Shown: piece by piece, positions 8,604-43,017 of the stretch | How positions within the stretch are numbered: the first letter of the stretch is position 1 | How the letters are laid out: every line of letters begins with the position of its first letter | IMG/VR virus record: IMGVR_UViG_3300032053_000101 | Coordinates: 1 to 53,992 of that record | From: a virus | Taxonomy: Duplodnaviria; Caudoviricetes | DNA length: 53,992 nt | Direction: 5' to 3' (one strand) | Program-made: the position numbers and the translations under genes | The notes under the pieces: model-generated | The model's database searches: none | What the model was told of the DNA's origin: nothing | The model's input: the letters and a program-made list of their open reading frames with translations, nothing else

Positions 8604-8623
8604 TTTAATACCCTCCTATATTG

Positions 8624-10176
8624 TTAAATTGTTAATTCTTCTTCCCCTATAGGTGAAGTTTCCTTTGGTGTTTCTGGAATTTCTTCTACTTTCTTCTCAA
8701 CTGCTGGAGCTTCTGGCATTGAAGTTTTAGGTTCTTCTAATGGAGAAATCCTTTCTCTTATTTCCGGAGAAATTGGAGCTCTCTCTTCTTCCATCACAAT
8801 TTTAGGTTTTTCTTTAATTGTCCACTTCTCTACTTTCAACCCATCAAGAACCTGATTTCCAACTTTCTCATCTTTCGTTGCTCTCTCTTCTCTTAACTTT
8901 CTCCATAAAGGATCTAACTCAGTCGATTGCTCTTCTTTGAATTCTTTCTTTATTACTTCTGGATCCCAATCAAATAGTTCTGCAACATACTTAAACGGAA
9001 CTTCTTCCTTATCTCTTAACCTCATAACATATTCCTGCAAAGTAGTATTAGATAATAAATTAAGTTTCTGCCAGAAGAATCTTGGTAAATCTAATTCTGG
9101 TTTCCTTGTTCTTACATTATGAGCTAATTCCGCTTTACTTCTTTTCTTATACATCTTTCTTGCAATTGCAAGAGGTTTGAATATCTTTTGTATTGCAGCA
9201 TTCTCTAATAAATTTCTATATGTTATATATTTCCCCATTAATATCCTAACAGAGATAGCCTGACTTGCATAAGGTCCGAGTTCTCCATGTAACACCGCAT
9301 CATTAACAAATAATCCTGCTTGAATTCTTTTCTTAACAAATTCAAAATGAGGTAATAAATCCATAATCTTATCTTTTCCTACAACATAATCTACTTCCAC
9401 AAACGGATTAGTGATTATATTAAAATCAGGATCATTCACTGCCTGTAATAATAATCTCTGAAACTCTAAAATTTTAGATTTATTAGGAATCCATCCTTTT
9501 ATTTTATCTCCAAGTTTAAATATCTTTATCGGAAATGTATGCCTATCGACAAAAGTATATAATAACATTCTTAATTTATCTTCATATATCAAATCCTTCA
9601 CAACTGATAATACCGGGCTTATTCCTCTTAAAGTATATTTATTAGGTCTTTGAGCTAAATGGATCAATCTCTCATTTGCAAGAGGATATGGTTTCTTCTT
9701 CCTCATTTGAGTTATAAAATCTGGATTTAGTTTTTCCATTGCTTCAACTAAAGCTTTATCAGCTGGTTTATTTGATTGAAGCATTTTCATAACATCTTCA
9801 TTTGGTCTTACATAATAAATTGCTTCTTTTGTAATATAAGTTTTATAAATCTCAACTTCCTCTGGAGGAAATTGATTGAATGATTCAAATTCAAGATCTG
9901 CAATATTCCAGTTACCATAAGAAAATGCTTCTCCAAGTAACCAGAAATCTCTTCCCATCTGTATAAAATGTTCAAGTAAATTTAATCTATCTTTAAAATC
10001 ATTATAATAACTACCATTCTCTTTTTCTTCACATTTCATTTCAAAATCTGATAAAGGAAAACTTGCATGTAACTCAATAATATTTCTTATATACGGATTA
10101 TATTGATAGTAATGTCTTAACCTTCTATTTAATTCCCTAATATTGTCCTTAGGGAACATCATTAGTATTGGATCGA
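8624..10176 (-). CDS. Portal protein, exon 2
   Basis: Portal-like segments (YYQYNPYIRNIIELH, FWLLGEAFSY, RLIHLA..LRGISPVLS); upstream of the protease/capsid genes; joins exon 1 in frame to give 593 aa. Confidence 0.8.
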
Positions 10177-27051: not shown

Positions 27052-30000
27052 TTAAATCCATTCGCCACCCTGTTCATGTAAATTCTCGTAAATAAATTCT
27101 CCTTCTGCCGATAACCTTTCTCCTTCCGAAGTAAATAATACCTTAACTGCTCCAACAATACAATCAATTTTATCTTTTGTTCCACCTTCTGGGTGGTCAA
27201 CCTTTTCTGATTTAATGGATTGTAATTGTTTAATTTCAGAAATTAAAATTCCATCATTAAGAAGTGATATTCTATCAGAATACAAAAGATCGATAAAGGT
27301 TTTATAATCAGAATATTTTAGATTATAAACATCGGAATGAATTCCCATTATCGAAAGGCGCTGCACAAGTAAAGCAGAATTCCACCTATCAAAATAAACC
27401 CCACCAATTCTTATTCTGGTTTTCAGTTCTTTAATAAATTCTTCAATATTATTTAAATCAACAATCGCTTCTTTGATTACCTGACCCTTTGAATCCTTAA
27501 TCTGAGGATCCCATGAAACAATAAGATCTACAATCAATTTATCATCTTCCTTATGCGTTACAGATAGTCCCGCAGCATCATTTTTTAGACCAAGATCAAT
27601 ATTAATTAAAAATTCTTCAGTAGAAACTGCTATATTCCACTTTGTTATTCTTTTCCTTATCTTCCCTTCCGAATAATAATCTTCTACTTCTACAATCGGC
27701 AATCTTTCATGATCGATTGCTTCATCTACTTTCTCTGGAAATTGTATAAAAGGAGACTCTACCGAAGGAGGCTCACAACAATACTTTGCTTTTGCATCTT
27801 TTGGATTATGATCAAAAGAATACTTTAAAGAAATCGGTACATTCCATTTTTCAAATTTAAATGTTGGTCCTGGAAATGGTCTTGCTTCCCATGTGCAAAG
27901 CTTAACCCCATACATTTGTAAACTGGATAAACTTTCTTCATACATCTGCATTGTAAAATCACCTTTATATCTCGGATAACTTAATATGAATCCTTTATAT
28001 CTACTTCCGAATCTACTTTCTGCACTTGTATTCAACATATCAAATATCTTATTAGCATTCCTGTTTTTTGATTTATCACGAAACGCAGATGCTTCATCCA
28101 TGATATAGCTAATTAAATTCAATCCTTCAATACTTTCCAATTCAGAATTAGAAGAATATATACCATTAGCATTAAATGAAGATATTGTATCTACTTCTAA
28201 ACAATATAATTGTTTTTTACCTATATATTCTATAGATTTAATTGCAGAAGCAAATAAATTATTATCCATAAGAAATTTTATTATTGGGTTATCATGTAAC
28301 CATATCTTTTTTTTAATGAAATTGGAACTAAAAGTTTCATATTGACAATCCCTTGGAGTGTTATCATCATATACATTTATTCCTTTTTTAATCTTCATTT
28401 TATACCAATCTAATATTAAACTCCCAATATCTGCATATTTTAATAAATGCTGTTCTTCAGCTAATGGCCAATTTTTCTTATGTTTATAAATTTTAACCAT
28501 AGGAAATAATTCTATAAATTTATTTTTAAAAGAACTAGGGATAAATATTTCATACAAATCTTTATGTAATATGTTTTTTTGTTTTACAATACATATATTC
28601 ACAGGAATACCAAAATTATTAAGTATTAATGATATTTTATTTATTAATTTTAAAGATACTGAAGCATATCTAAACATAGTACCCAAACAACCATCTCCAT
28701 CCCATAATCCTGCTATAAAATATTTCATTTGTTCTTCTGGTAAATTCATTAATAAATCAGGTATATATTTATCTCCCATAAATTGTTGTTCTGAAGAAGA
28801 TCTAAACCCTAATTGTTCAAAAATTTTAGCTATTCTATAGTTATAAATCATATATTTACAACCTCGATCTTTTTTGTTCTTATAACATTTAAAATCATCA
28901 CCAAATATTAATCTTCCATATTCTTGTATTCTTTTACCTACTAATTCATCATATTGAGATATTTGTATTGAATACGATGGTTGATTCCTTCCTTTTCTTA
29001 TGAATTTTTTATATGTACCTTCAGCAATAAATATCCCTAATAACCATGCTAATTCATTATTAATATATAAATTATTATTATCAGGAAAAAATTTATAATC
29101 TTTATTTAAACCTAATTTTATTTCTTTTCTTGTACTGGCAATTGTAGTACTAGAAATGGGCATTCCTTCAATTTTTAATGTATTTTTGATTTCAAATATT
29201 GATTTTTTATTTAAAATTAATTCTATTAGCCTTTGTTTTTTATATTGTCTAAAATCACCTATTAAATATGGCTGCTTTATTTCAATTTTATCAAAATTAC
29301 CAAATTTATTTAATGAATTAAAATACCATAAATAATCTCCAACTTTCAGTTCAGATAATGATATTTTTACGAATTGTTTATTTCTAATTACATTAAATTT
29401 ATGGTTTAAATTACATTCTATAGATAATCCATTTTTAAGTGTTACTTTATAAACATCATCTATACAACTAGATGTCGATTTTACTTTATATTGATTATTT
29501 CCAACCGTTACATATTCTCCTATATTTATATCTATAATTTTTTTCCATCCAAATGGAGTTAAAATTAAAGTATCTCCAGATACACAATGTTTTGAAAACA
29601 TTCTTATTCCTTTTGGAAATAATATAGCATTCCTTGTTATTTTTACCTGATTCAATACTTCCTTTTCCTTTTCTGATACAAGTTGGTTTGATAATACAAT
29701 AGGATATTTTGTCTTTAACCATATATTATGTATTATTCTCTGTTTTAATTTCTCAAAGAATACATTCATTGCTTGATCAGCGGAATATGCAACATTAACA
29801 ATATCAATACTTTCATCTGGTGGAAGATTTAATATTTGTTGCGGATTCTTACAACATAAAAGAAAGTATGTAATATAACAAATAACTAAAGCGGATAAAG
29901 TATCTTTCCCTGAATTATGATTATACAATCCATTAGCCAAATAGTTATGATAAACAGGGACTTCTAAATCATAATATATGTCCTTTTTGTAAAATTCTAT

Positions 30001-30738
30001 TTTTATTATCTTATCTAATTTTTTTGTTTTACCATGGGAATAATTTGCTAAATGACCATATATATTATGGAATTCTTTATTACATATTTTACAAGTTATT
30101 TTAGATATATTCTTAATATCATCATCTAATATCAAATCTCCAACTTTTAAATCTTTCAATGGGGACCAACCATGTAATGTTTTAAATTTATGCTCTAATG
30201 TAACCTTTATTCTTTTCCTACTTTCCGTTTCAACTAAATATAAATCATCTTCCCCTTTAATCCAAGGAATAGAAGATCTAGCATAATGAAGATTCGTATT
30301 GGAATCTATGCACTGTACAGTTATTTCTTTTTGTAATTTATATAATTTTTCTACTGTGTAATCTTTATCTTCTAAAGCATCATGAATTATAGTATCTCCA
30401 GCAATACATCCTTTCCCCCAGAGTAGAACAGCAATACTAAATGCTTGGTTCTCAAATATGTTCTTTGATATCTTATCTTTATATTGATCATATTCTTCAA
30501 AAGGAACACCATAGAGTACAGCATAACAAGGATCATATTGAGCAGGTGATAAATCTATGAAATTAAGATAGTCCGGAGATGTAACAAATGTTCTGAAATC
30601 AACCGGTTCTTCTTCAAAGATTGTTTCAGGTAGGATAACGGCTTCTTCGATAGGTTTTTTAATATCCTCTTTAGTAATATTAGTAAAATGATTTGAAGCT
30701 ATATTACTGTATTTGTTTTGTGTAATCTGTTGCGGCAT
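27052..30738 (-). CDS. terL: Terminase large subunit with two inteins (583 aa after splicing)
   Basis: Spliced Walker A GKG|SGKD, Walker B YIMDE, nuclease IDLG..ND and DHP..G.KD..D. Confidence 0.9.
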   Translation of the reverse strand: MPQQITQNKYSNIASNHFTNITKEDIKKPIEEAVILPETIFEEEPVDFRTFVTSPDYLNFIDLSPAQYDPCYAVLYGVPFEEYDQYKDKISKNIFENQAFSIAVLLWGKGCIAGDTIIHDALEDKDYTVEKLYKLQKEITVQCIDSNTNLHYARSSIPWIKGEDDLYLVETESRKRIKVTLEHKFKTLHGWSPLKDLKVGDLILDDDIKNISKITCKICNKEFHNIYGHLANYSHGKTKKLDKIIKIEFYKKDIYYDLEVPVYHNYLANGLYNHNSGKDTLSALVICYITYFLLCCKNPQQILNLPPDESIDIVNVAYSADQAMNVFFEKLKQRIIHNIWLKTKYPIVLSNQLVSEKEKEVLNQVKITRNAILFPKGIRMFSKHCVSGDTLILTPFGWKKIIDINIGEYVTVGNNQYKVKSTSSCIDDVYKVTLKNGLSIECNLNHKFNVIRNKQFVKISLSELKVGDYLWYFNSLNKFGNFDKIEIKQPYLIGDFRQYKKQRLIELILNKKSIFEIKNTLKIEGMPISSTTIASTRKEIKLGLNKDYKFFPDNNNLYINNELAWLLGIFIAEGTYKKFIRKGRNQPSYSIQISQYDELVGKRIQEYGRLIFGDDFKCYKNKKDRGCKYMIYNYRIAKIFEQLGFRSSSEQQFMGDKYIPDLLMNLPEEQMKYFIAGLWDGDGCLGTMFRYASVSLKLINKISLILNNFGIPVNICIVKQKNILHKDLYEIFIPSSFKNKFIELFPMVKIYKHKKNWPLAEEQHLLKYADIGSLILDWYKMKIKKGINVYDDNTPRDCQYETFSSNFIKKKIWLHDNPIIKFLMDNNLFASAIKSIEYIGKKQLYCLEVDTISSFNANGIYSSNSELESIEGLNLISYIMDEASAFRDKSKNRNANKIFDMLNTSAESRFGSRYKGFILSYPRYKGDFTMQMYEESLSSLQMYGVKLCTWEARPFPGPTFKFEKWNVPISLKYSFDHNPKDAKAKYCCEPPSVESPFIQFPEKVDEAIDHERLPIVEVEDYYSEGKIRKRITKWNIAVSTEEFLINIDLGLKNDAAGLSVTHKEDDKLIVDLIVSWDPQIKDSKGQVIKEAIVDLNNIEEFIKELKTRIRIGGVYFDRWNSALLVQRLSIMGIHSDVYNLKYSDYKTFIDLLYSDRISLLNDGILISEIKQLQSIKSEKVDHPEGGTKDKIDCIVGAVKVLFTSEGERLSAEGEFIYENLHEQGGEWI
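28147..29586 (-). mobile_element. Intein with LAGLIDADG homing endonuclease (480 aa) in TerL
   Basis: CVSGDT start; LLGIFIAEG and FIAGLWDGDG motifs; ends ANGIYSSN before Ser. Confidence 0.9.
29914..30408 (-). mobile_element. Mini-intein (165 aa) in the TerL Walker A motif
   Basis: CIAGDT start, TLEH block B, YDLEV..NYLANGLYNHN end before Ser. Confidence 0.92.
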
Positions 30739-31315
30739 TTGCTAAAGCCTCCTTATATTCTTCATCAGATTTATTCTTATTTTCTAATCCAACATATAAT
30801 AATATCCTAAACAAATTATCTATTATATAAATAACATCCTTACTTGCTACAAGATCTAGGAAATATCTTCTTCTTAATTCTATTAACCTTATTTTATTCA
30901 TCATCATTTTTTCCTTAATAAATGTTTTAGGTGCAAGATCCAATCCTTTTGTTTCTAACTCTCCAAGATCTTTATTGAGTGAATCTATATCATCATTTAT
31001 ATTCTCATATGTTGTTAATCTTTGTTTTGCTCTTTCTAGTTCCTTCTTTCCATCTTTAACCATTTCCTCAACTGTTTGAACTTTATTCTGTTCTAATCTC
31101 TGGTCCTTTAATATCATCAATTCTTTGGATTTCTCAGAACCTTTGAAGTATATCAAATCAAAATTTCTAATTGTGTTATTTGAAATTTTAACCTTATATT
31201 GTTCTTTAAGTATTTCTGCTATCTTGCGATAAGATATATGCTGCGTTAAAAGACCACCAACTATGTTTTCTAATTCTGTTCCTACTATTTTTCTCATTTT
31301 GATTATTTTAATCAT
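30704..31315 (-). CDS. Probable terminase small subunit
   Basis: N-terminal HTH (SYRKIAEIL..ISNNTIRN), coiled coil, overlaps the terL start. Confidence 0.6.
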   Translation of the reverse strand: MIKIIKMRKIVGTELENIVGGLLTQHISYRKIAEILKEQYKVKISNNTIRNFDLIYFKGSEKSKELMILKDQRLEQNKVQTVEEMVKDGKKELERAKQRLTTYENINDDIDSLNKDLGELETKGLDLAPKTFIKEKMMMNKIRLIELRRRYFLDLVASKDVIYIIDNLFRILLYVGLENKNKSDEEYKEALANAATDYTKQIQ

Positions 31316-31330
31316 GATAAATCTTTCTTA

Positions 31331-31408
31331 ATTGATAAAATATTGATAAATATTGATAAATTCTCCTTATTATATAGCTAAAGGTATAACCTACTATTTT
31401 TATCAATA
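31331..31408. repeat. Three direct copies and one inverted copy of (T)ATTGATAAA upstream of terS
   Basis: attgataaaa-tattgataaa-tattgataaa at 31331-31360; tttatcaata near 31399. Confidence 0.55.
31365..31390 (-). promoter_or_regulatory. Conserved 26-bp upstream motif, copy 2
   Basis: Matches 21668-21693 at 25/26 positions. Confidence 0.55.
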
Positions 31409-31520: not shown

Positions 31521-31720
31521 ATATCCTATTTTGTTCTGTGTGATGCGGTTCTGTCAAATTGTATCATATAATCTTATTTTAAAAAATTCCGTTGTGTATA
31601 GTCAAATTGTCATATTTCATCATGTGATGTTATGTCAAATTGTATCATATAATCTTATTTTAAAAAATTCCGTTGTGTATAGTCAAATCGTTATATTTCA
31701 TCTTATGTTGTTCTGTCAAA
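31521..31720 (-). repeat. Non-coding array with 5-nt NAY-NN periodicity, units delimited by TTTGAC (putative guide-RNA array)
   Basis: TTTGAC spaced 33/48/33/48 nt; 30 of 32 pentamers after these anchors end in AY; begins 25 nt after the RAMP gene stop. Confidence 0.8.
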
Positions 31721-31744
31721 TTGTTTTAATTAACCTAATACAAT

Positions 31745-32401
31745 TCAATCATCCTGTTTTTTAAATTTTAATAGATTGAGTTTACCTTTCTGGAAACTTC
31801 TCATTGAACCCAATCCTATTTCTTGTGATAATTCTACCATTTTTTTAAATTTATCATCAGATATTGTTCCATTATCTACGATCCATGCTTCATATTTAAT
31901 TATTCTTTTTTCAGAATAATCTGCTCTTTTTAATATACTTCTATCCCCTCTTGGACCCATAACATGGCCAAAAAAATCTTCATAGCCATCTGGTTTATCA
32001 GATAACCTTATATCAGTTGGCTTAATAAATAAGCCATGTTGAAATGTTTGTCTAAAACTTTTAATTAAAAATCCAAGAGTCTTTGCAGATTCTCTCAACA
32101 TTGCTTTAATTTGATAATCAGCTAAAAATATACCGCTTCCGTTGAAAGACCTAAATCCGCACCACATCTTAGACAATTCTTCTTCTTGATCTAAGGGTTC
32201 TATATCTTCTTTTAATTGTTCTGCTACCCCTCGTGCCTTTTCATTATCTTTTATTTTAGCAGTTGTAAAAGCATCAATCACATCTTCATGGCGTGGCAAT
32301 CCACCATAAATTCTTTCTCTAGCTTGCATTTCTACTGCAAACTTTTTATATATACTACCATCTTTCTTTACTTCTACTTCTTGACCTAAATCATTCTTCA
32401 T
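31745..32401 (-). CDS. Stand-alone Cas7/RAMP-superfamily protein (Vipr-like)
   Basis: First strand + IYGGLP, IFLADYQIKAMLRESA helix, thumb (GHVMGPRGDRSILK), C-terminal G-rich loop IGLGSMRSFQKGK; no other cas gene in the window. Confidence 0.78.
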   Translation of the reverse strand: MKNDLGQEVEVKKDGSIYKKFAVEMQARERIYGGLPRHEDVIDAFTTAKIKDNEKARGVAEQLKEDIEPLDQEEELSKMWCGFRSFNGSGIFLADYQIKAMLRESAKTLGFLIKSFRQTFQHGLFIKPTDIRLSDKPDGYEDFFGHVMGPRGDRSILKRADYSEKRIIKYEAWIVDNGTISDDKFKKMVELSQEIGLGSMRSFQKGKLNLLKFKKQDD

Positions 32402-32502: not shown

Positions 32503-32530
32503 ATTATATCATAAATATTAGTTTTGTCAA
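32503..32530 (-). promoter_or_regulatory. Sigma70-type promoter for the RAMP gene
   Basis: TTGACA-16 nt-TATAAT with an extended -10 TG. Confidence 0.8.
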
Positions 32531-32696: not shown

Positions 32697-32773
32697 TGGC
32701 GGAGCTAGTGGGAATCGAACCCACGATCTTCTGCTCGACAGGCAGATGTGTTAGCCGGCTACACCATAGCTCC
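32697..32773 (-). tRNA. tRNA-Asp(GUC)
   Basis: Full cloverleaf GGAGCUA/UAGCUCC, anticodon loop CU-GUC-GA, UUCGA T-loop, encoded CCA. Confidence 0.96.
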
Positions 32774-42946: not shown

Positions 42947-43017
42947 AGTGAACTGAAGGATTCGCACCTTCTCCCTTGGGGCCACAACCCAATGCTCTAC
43001 TATTAAGCTAAGCCCAC
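42947..43017 (-). tRNA. tRNA-His(GUG)-like, atypical or degenerate
   Basis: Cloverleaf GUGGGCU/AGUUCAC, UUGGG-UUGUGGC-CCCAA anticodon arm; T-loop UGCGAAU, no D-loop GG, no encoded CCA. Confidence 0.7.

Follow-up and report, generated by a model that had tools for sequence, protein, structure and literature searches.

What does a phage use a non-coding stretch of DNA for, when its letters recur in steps of five bases beside the gene of a small RAMP protein? This question is raised by positions 31,521 to 31,720 of the IMG/VR record IMGVR_UViG_3300032053_000101 (Caudoviricetes). The complete record, of 53,992 bases, will be hereafter referred to as the window. It covers 29% of a genome by CheckV estimate, it has a G+C content of 29%, and it belongs to a large A/T-rich sediment phage. 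Here, we describe the stretch as, most probably, the guide-RNA array of a VIPR-like system, which has a lone Cas7-type RAMP encoded upstream and is written in an A-Y dialect instead of a GGY one. This reading is based on the statistics of the five-base grammar, the RAMP fold and its chain of homology, the co-occurrence of gene and array in relatives with the same grammar, a phage contig (L004) in which two dialects are found together, and the hypervariability of the array. VIPR, a gene-silencing system, was first described in preprints of April and June 2026, with the Escherichia phage SUSP1 as the exemplar of type II. As presented in these preprints, it comprises a lone RAMP and vrRNAs made of GGY/NN pentamers, with one protomer per pentamer; GGY is sequestered, NN pairs with the DNA target, and every third base is skipped (10.64898/2026.04.26.720920,.720927). 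VIPR has thus been known since 2026 only and is defined there by its GGY/NN code. The locus described here keeps the step of 5 nucleotides (nt) and changes the rest.

The array is read on the minus strand, where TTTGAC headers at 31720, 31687, 31639, 31606 and 31558 divide it into five units:

31688..31720, minus strand: U1, 33 nt, composed of TTT, the GAC header and five further N-A-Y-N-N steps
31640..31687, minus strand: U2, 48 nt, identical to U4, which holds the single off-grammar pentamer
31607..31639, minus strand: U3, 33 nt, paralogous to U1, from which it differs at 6 positions
31559..31606, minus strand: U4, 48 nt, an exact copy of U2
31521..31558, minus strand: U5, 38 nt, the gene-distal last unit, without a closing header
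31721..31744, minus strand: gap of 24 nt between the RAMP stop codon and the first header, as read from the sequence

The units have 5 to 9 steps each and are without a long conserved 3' tail. The 24-nt gap ends in ACAA, and the same four letters precede three of the four later headers. The sequence ACAATTTGAC is located in the window at positions 31724, 31643, 31610 and 31562 only.

An earlier note on this DNA had given the minus-strand parse into five units of 33, 48, 33, 48 and 38 nt, with U2 equal to U4, and it was reproduced letter for letter. The 81-nt duplication U1U2/U3U4 described in that note is also seen by Tandem Repeats Finder (TRF), which reports 2.2 copies with 92% matches at 31548-31724, and the autocorrelation at lag 5 that the note had put forward as a check gives a signal above shuffles. 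The lag-5 identity of the array is 0.462, versus 0.32 ± 0.033 in dinucleotide shuffles (z 4.3; reached by 0 of 5000). When the duplicate copy is removed (U1U2U5), z is 3.5 and the value is reached by 3 of 5000 shuffles. The array is the top lag-5 window of the 54 kb by a narrow margin, with an excess of 0.187 against 0.170 for the runner-up and a population standard deviation of 0.048. The five-base rhythm is real. In 27 of the 28 non-redundant pentamers, position 2 of the triplet is A and position 3 is Y, the sole exception being TTTAA in U2. For comparison, shuffling with a choice of the best of five phases gives a mean A-Y count of 9.8 and a maximum of 18, and 0 of 20,000 shuffles reach 27. 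Runs of 9 and of 10 NNNAY pentamers are found in the array, and the longest run in 200 block shuffles of the window has at most 8. The first base of the triplet varies (G 9, A 11, C 4 and T 4 among the 28, in a count made by eye on the parse). The fixed part of each step is A-Y, not the whole triplet. The sense RNA, that of the minus strand, shows no extra structure when compared with shuffles (z -0.65), as expected of a guide that is coated by protein.

The array occupies a 429-nt intergenic stretch, which in minus-strand sense is bounded upstream by an open reading frame (ORF) of 218 amino acids (aa) and downstream by one of 203 aa. The upstream gene is as follows:

31745..32401, minus strand: 218-aa Vipr-like RAMP gene, Cas7/Csm3 fold, from the ORF list, the AlphaFold2 fold, Foldseek and hhalign

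Searches of Pfam and PHROG with the 218-aa protein gave no match. Its relatives form 476 representative clusters at E ≤ 1e-3. The AlphaFold2 model, which was calculated from an alignment of 86 sequences, has a predicted local distance difference test score (pLDDT) of 91.9. It can be described as a beta-alpha-beta RRM core with a beta-hairpin "thumb" at about residues 139-164 and a G-rich loop, GLGSMRSFQKG, at 196-206, and it therefore has the features of Vipr-type proteins, which are small RAMPs with an RRM core, a G-rich loop and a thumb. The 50 best Foldseek matches in the PDB are all Cas7/Csm3/Cmr or Cas7-11 chains of effector complexes, with a best E of 4.8e-7 and a template modelling (TM) score of up to 0.54. 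In class 1 effectors, each protomer covers a fixed step of the guide RNA, and the thumb breaks the duplex periodically. The best structural matches of the 218-aa protein are the Cas7 backbones of type III and type VII effectors (Csm3, Cmr4, and Cas7 of 9j9e/8yhe).

Sequence profiles lead to the same proteins. The profile of the family of the 218-aa protein, A1, has weak matches among the PDB sequences, to RAMP G-loops only. Aligned with hhalign to the canonical Vipr family, A4, it gives a probability of 95.1% and an E of 3.4e-8 over 147 columns, and the sole match of the A4 profile among the PDB sequences is 36pp_D, the "SUSP1 Vipr protein" (E 1.2e-6). Judged by these profiles, the 218-aa protein is probably a distant homologue of Vipr, connected to it through one intermediate family. 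Residue R201, which aligns with R179 of SUSP1, is nearly invariant across the family, and the residues aligned with D177 and W178 of SUSP1 are S and M in the 218-aa protein; the alignment to the SUSP1 chain is weak. In the VIPR preprints, D177 and W178 are the contacts of G1 and G2, and R179 is the contact of Y3. From this weak alignment we infer that the residues in contact with G1 and G2 have been altered and that the arginine in contact with Y3 has been kept.

The same grammar is found next to relatives of the gene. A 1.8-kb nucleotide query had no match in 50,697 phage records, and scans of IMG/VR with single proteins, the RAMP and its 203-aa neighbour, gave no relatives. An alignment-based scan of IMG/VR gave 21 loci with a relative of the RAMP, and a scan of metagenomes gave 2. 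The counts below that are given over 22 loci leave out L014, which is a copy of L013. In 17 of the 21 IMG/VR loci, the strongest period-5 window lies outside the RAMP gene within about 1 kb of it. The tracts of the relatives consist of an xxGAC header (TTGAC, GCGAC, CCGAC, GCAAC), pentamers with three free and two constrained letters, and 3 extra nt. The constrained letters are mostly CC, and AC in L003. Eight of the 22 loci, those with a header evident by eye, were parsed for unit length, and 48 of their 69 units have a length of 3 modulo 5, where 20% is expected; lengths of 28, 38, 43 and 53 are among them. In a blind count over the 22 loci, runs of NNN[A/C/T]C cover 16.4% of the 1-kb flanks on the gene strand, compared with 3.7% on the other strand of the flanks and 3.8% at greater distance, and sense coverage exceeds antisense coverage in 20 of the 22. 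The entropies of the three free columns are 1.94-1.98 bits; since the search pattern itself prescribed the letters of the two constrained columns, the entropy count is uninformative on them. Header and 3+5n rule recur in relatives of 43-72% G+C. The RAMP is the one gene common to all 22 loci and no other neighbour is conserved, which shows that the array travels with the RAMP gene and not with the terminase.

A cultured relative is Microcystis phage Mae-JY09 (L023 = PP395641.1, 37713-38976). Its RAMP homologue, WWT39994.1, is annotated as "hypothetical protein", and an unannotated CCGAC/NNNCC array starts at the stop codon of this gene and runs to the genome end. Mae-JY09 offers a tractable host-phage pair. 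Six loci (L006, L007, L012, L013, L021 and L023) form a sub-clade, of which the window is not a member, and have in common an upstream gene of about 170-200 aa; this gene is a candidate for a vap-like accessory gene in that sub-clade only. A search of IMG/VR with the header-plus-A-Y pattern gave 47 loci, 0 of them with a homologue of the family, and we therefore take these for chance matches. A different repeat was noticed on the IMG/VR contig L069, where two pairs of ATTTGAC motifs are located exactly 62 nt apart on the minus strand at about 8604-8940; the locus has no RAMP homologue. The ~476 protein clusters indicate a sister family of considerable size, in which the 5-nt step is kept, the fixed letters are changed, the third position is freed and the units are short and headed.

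One relative, the IMG/VR phage contig L004 (2380-4890 and 8320-8415), links this family to canonical VIPR. It has at least six canonical GGY/NN tracts scattered between genes, and its 191-aa ORF is a canonical Vipr with a direct match to 36pp_D (E 6.7e-4). Adjoining it is a second RAMP, of the family of the 218-aa protein, and at the stop codon of this second gene starts its own GCGAC/NNNCC array. One strand carries all of these elements, the GGY and C-type arrays as well as the two RAMP genes. The presence of the two dialects in one phage hints at two guide pools that are kept apart.

The array differs between near-identical phages. On the metagenome contig L032, the gene is identical at 657 of 657 positions and the region upstream at 159 of 159, and there are 4 mismatches in 1635 nt beyond the array; the array itself (2042-2416) has nine units, compared with five in the window. 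The four extra units lie on the gene-proximal side: the first is a U1 variant, the second is new and has 33 nt, the third repeats U3, and the fourth, of 76 nt, fuses another new unit to the U3 tail. After these come U1 and U2, a U3 that carries a single change, then U4 and U5. In phase, NNNAY is kept by the new units (all 5 pentamers of unit b, the initial 7 of unit d), and the fusion unit, which ends in the tail of U3, argues that recombination at the level of units is frequent. Along the L032 array, 33-nt units like U1 and U3 recur four times and alternate roughly with unrelated units. Contigs from sediment runs also have this longer form; the gene is identical there, and 11 substitutions and 15 deleted bases all lie within 31644-31713. 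In one sediment run, the flank is joined straight to U3, which results in a 3-unit form. For runs X3-X5, the contigs cover parts of the stretch only. U5 is common to the 3-, 5- and 9-unit forms. That units come and go next to a gene that stays identical provides a natural handle on the evolution of the array.

Comparison of units shows where the changes fall. The pairs U1/U3, U1/variant and U3/variant, which overlap and are not independent, give 11 substitutions: 8 are in free columns, the second of which accounts for 5, the 3-nt spacer has 2, 1 is a T/C change in the Y column, and there are 0 in the A column or in the header. U2 and U4 are identical over 48 nt, and U1 and U3 differ at 6 of 33 positions; by our own arithmetic, six random changes over the 81 nt would all fall within those 33 in ~0.3-0.5% of cases. 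The identity of U2 and U4 versus the divergence of U1 and U3 would reflect either diversification of U1/U3 or conservation or conversion of U2.

These data from relatives and strains allow the scheme of the earlier note, a 5-nt code of scaffold plus variable letters, to be redrawn. The code stands and is now tied to the upstream RAMP gene, but what serves as scaffold is two letters per step, A-Y in this array and mostly C-C or A-C in relatives, and not a triplet. The third position that the note had counted with a conserved triplet is as free in relatives as its "dinucleotide" (1.94-1.98 bits for all three free columns), and GAC-AAC-CAY, which had been taken for scaffold in U1, U3 and U5, is better read as the common descent of these units. 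The unit length of 3+5n and the GAC header, noticed in one array, recur in relatives and are properties of the family, not accidents of the window. As had been anticipated, variation avoids the scaffold, with the fixed A spared and Y kept among the 11 substitutions, and the growth and diversification proposed for the array are seen as gain and loss of units between near-identical phages.

A mechanism can be proposed, for which one more feature is needed:

32503..32530, minus strand: promoter of the RAMP gene, sigma-70-type consensus (TTGACA, 16 nt, TG-TATAAT)

The hexamers of this promoter match the consensus at 12 of 12 positions, and TG is present in addition. It is the likely start of a joint transcript, as judged from its sequence, so gene and array would probably be co-transcribed and expressed together. 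The gene strand is favoured as the RNA by the co-orientation of arrays and genes, by the abutment of arrays to the stop codon and by the arrangement in L004. The RNA would be divided at the ..TTTGAC boundaries, which would set the ends of short units of 33-48 nt. Each protomer would bind one 5-nt step, hold the fixed A-Y pair and present the free bases for pairing. The resulting protein filament, which is suggested by homology, would read a gapped DNA target in a competing element and silence that element.

Several points weigh against this reading. The GGY motif is absent from the array, and so is the long conserved 3' tail. The direct comparison of A1 with 36pp_D gives an alignment that is near full-length and not significant (E 0.28), so the homology depends on the family in between. 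The 22 loci have no conserved vap-like accessory gene. U2/U4 may not be a plain guide: it has an off-grammar step, it contains a promoter-like site (TTGACT-18-TAAAAT, minus strand), and it is conserved while its neighbours vary. Under the published rule of two bases per step, the units would specify 10-18 bases only. Target scans were made for exact matches, with U2, the longest unit, as the sole guide. With two bases per step and a 1-nt skip, IMG/VR gave 8 loci in 5 gene groups, compared with 1 for a control of reversed order; the genes are unrelated and there is no wobble register. One of these matches may lie in a giant-virus ribonucleotide reductase, to judge from its peptide. The same pattern gave 32 scattered matches in 185,579 species genomes, one for each species, in unrelated genes and taxa and with codon phases of 8/7/7. 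Finally, the RNA side of the mechanism as a whole, from transcription, strand and ends to processing, binding by the protein, pairing and targets, stands in the conditional, and we count this against the reading too.

Other rules of pairing were also considered. With three bases per step, U2 has 0 matches in IMG/VR and 0 in the species genomes when no base is skipped, and 0 matches in IMG/VR with a skip of 1. Within the window, with skips of 0-3, there is no perfect match other than one of U3 at skip 2 (12 of 12), near matches are similar in number under all rules, and none of the self-targets is convincing. It is conceivable, and in our view unlikely, that two bases of each step are held and all three free bases are read, that arrays lengthen in a polar manner, with complete new units added at the end nearest the gene, and that they form a CRISPR-like record of encounters without Cas1 or Cas2. 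Polar addition is suggested by the nested 3-, 5- and 9-unit forms with their common distal end. Reading of all three free bases would explain why 5-9 steps suffice, and if the family does read three bases per step, gapped recognition of DNA by guide RNAs would follow broader rules than those known.

The closest rival keeps the system and takes the guide RNA from the plus strand. On this strand the units would be (R-T-N-N-N)n in the present array and (G-G-N-N-N)n in G+C-rich relatives, with GTCAA.. as a short and invariant 3' tail behind them. This layout is nearer to that given in the VIPR discovery preprint, in which a variable tract is followed by an invariant 3' tail and repeats of the types NNNGG, YNNNG and NNNNG are described (10.64898/2026.04.26.720920). 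The reverse complement of NNNCC is GGNNN, and the published fixed-G motif is found here only if the opposite strand is the RNA. Furthermore, the plus-strand RNA is somewhat more structured than its shuffles (z -2.28, with an equally good fold in 2 of 200), and U2 has a perfect TATAAT hexamer on the plus strand. However, arrays and genes are co-oriented in 20 of 22 loci, the arrays abut the stop codon in L004 and in Mae-JY09, and in L004 the GGY arrays share their strand with both RAMP genes and the C-type array. As far as the text of the preprints describes it, SUSP1 vrRNA1 and vipr were cloned as one piece, which suggests a common orientation and a single vector promoter. The best-fixed base of the sense reading is always a pyrimidine, which fits the published Y3 pocket, and R201, which aligns with R179, is nearly invariant. 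GAC/NN and CAC/NN motifs, moreover, are listed in the October 2026 preprint (10.64898/2026.10.21.760802). A guide from the plus strand is on balance improbable.

The remaining rivals dispense with a guide. In the one that stays at the level of DNA, the array belongs to the terminase operon, either as tandem sigma-70 promoters or operators with the headers as -35 boxes or as a pac site bound by the small terminase. The headers indeed read TTGAC(A/T), the array has three sites with 18-nt spacers that match the promoter consensus at 10 of 12 positions, and downstream of it are the genes of a 203-aa HTH-like protein and of a large terminase that bears an intein. Yet promoter-like sites are no commoner in the region than in shuffles (16 vs 15.4 ± 4.7), the G+C-rich relatives keep the grammar with GCGAC, CCGAC and GCAAC headers that are not -35-like, and a 5-nt period would put successive sites on opposite faces of the helix. 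The array also follows the RAMP into unrelated neighbourhoods, DnaB in L004 and the genome end in Mae-JY09, with no terminase conserved. Since no neighbour but the RAMP is common to the loci, the terminase and pac-site version is removed, and we regard a DNA element of any of these kinds as very improbable. Tandem promoters had been a first reading, which was dropped after the RAMP fold and the non--35-like headers of the relatives were seen. Scarcely tenable is a decaying, functionless pentanucleotide satellite with a recent 81-nt duplication. The phage DNA is A/T-rich (29% G+C) and the pentamers resemble a degenerate (NACAA)n, but of the five columns two stay fixed and the other three are free to vary, relatives of 43-72% G+C have the same header and follow the 3+5n rule, and the new units of L032 obey the grammar perfectly. 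Lastly, the array overlaps a repetitive 77-aa ORF on the plus strand (31531-31764), and 84 of 99 codons are stop-free in the window. The unit lengths of 33 and 48 nt and the duplication of 81 nt are all divisible by three, which keeps this frame open; the 76-nt unit of L032 breaks it (longest open stretch 91 of 153), the units of relatives have lengths of 28, 38, 43 and 53, and the constraint has a period of 5, not 3. To a coding function we give practically no credence.

The VIPR-like guide array can be compared with known systems. In common with SUSP1 VIPR, as described in the preprints, the locus has a phage-borne lone RAMP with RRM core, thumb and G-loop, and beside the gene a non-coding array of 5-nt steps with fixed and free positions and a pyrimidine at the third position of the step. 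Unlike the GGY of SUSP1, the window array fixes A-Y and its relatives C-C or A-C, and the first position is free; on the gene strand the published GGY, NNNGG, YNNNG and NNNNG motifs do not fit. The preprints give 9-16 repeats and an invariant structured 3' tail for SUSP1, whereas the window has units of 5-9 steps, a short xxGAC header and a 3-nt phase slip, and no vap gene at the locus. In SUSP1, perturbed GGY motifs abolished silencing, and GGY>AAY is among the perturbations that the preprints report.

A preprint of 22 October 2026 describes 21 clusters of non-canonical VIPR-like arrays, including GAC/NN, CAC/NN, WGT/NN and TGH/NN (10.64898/2026.10.21.760802). Like the window array, these are non-GGY 5-nt arrays beside Vipr-like folds, and xAC/NN resembles N-A-Y-N-N with a GAC header. 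The clusters are described with fixed trinucleotides and ~10 repeats, whereas the window array has two fixed positions, and after every 5-9 steps a header and a phase slip interrupt its runs. The staggered vrRNA arrays of the discovery preprint (10.64898/2026.04.26.720920, fig. S18) are also composed of head-to-tail units without spacers or long tails, in which each unit starts where the previous one ends; their overlaps are of 1 nt and of GGY type, whereas the boundary in the window has 3 extra nt and a GAC header. In the text of the VIPR literature, supplements aside, we did not find a step of two fixed and three free positions, short headed units with a 3-nt phase slip, the A-Y dialect, dialects side by side, or turnover of units at the level of strains.

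Type III and type VII CRISPR-Cas systems have 6-nt steps, unlike the 5-nt steps, the single small protein and the lack of a repeat-spacer array seen here. A repeat-spacer CRISPR array (direct repeats of 23-50 nt with unique spacers) was sought in the window with TRF and none was found, and in the array TRF gives the 81-nt duplication only. No cas adaptation genes were seen near the locus. TIGR-Tas systems, as published (PMC12045711), are likewise phage-borne and have compact tandem guide arrays without CRISPR-like repeats. They are described with a Nop-domain Tas and a 36-nt dual-spacer unit; the window has a RAMP protein, no Pfam match and a 5-nt step, so the locus does not classify as TIGR-Tas. 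A TIGR or box C/D-like array had been another first reading, dropped after the RAMP fold and the relatives became known.

Nearly all ORFs of at least 100 aa in the window are on the minus strand. End repeats were sought in the record and none were found. A scan of the window with Rfam gave two tRNAs and nothing else. The other features around the locus are the following:

30704-31315, minus strand: 203-aa ORF, HTH-like, from the ORF list; it overlaps the start of the large terminase
27052-30738, minus strand: large terminase, 1228 aa, intein-bearing, with two stretches of an intein splicing domain and a LAGLIDADG domain
32697-32773, minus strand: tRNA-Asp(GTC), just upstream of the RAMP promoter
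42947-43017, minus strand: tRNA-His(GTG), 10 kb away from the RAMP locus

The 203-aa ORF, which has no family match, looks like a small terminase, given its predicted HTH and coiled coil. Directly upstream of its ATG at 31315, the 10-nt unit ATTTATCAAT is repeated three times in tandem on the minus strand at 31331-31361 (TRF, 95% matches). This three-copy repeat may be an operator or a regulator site.

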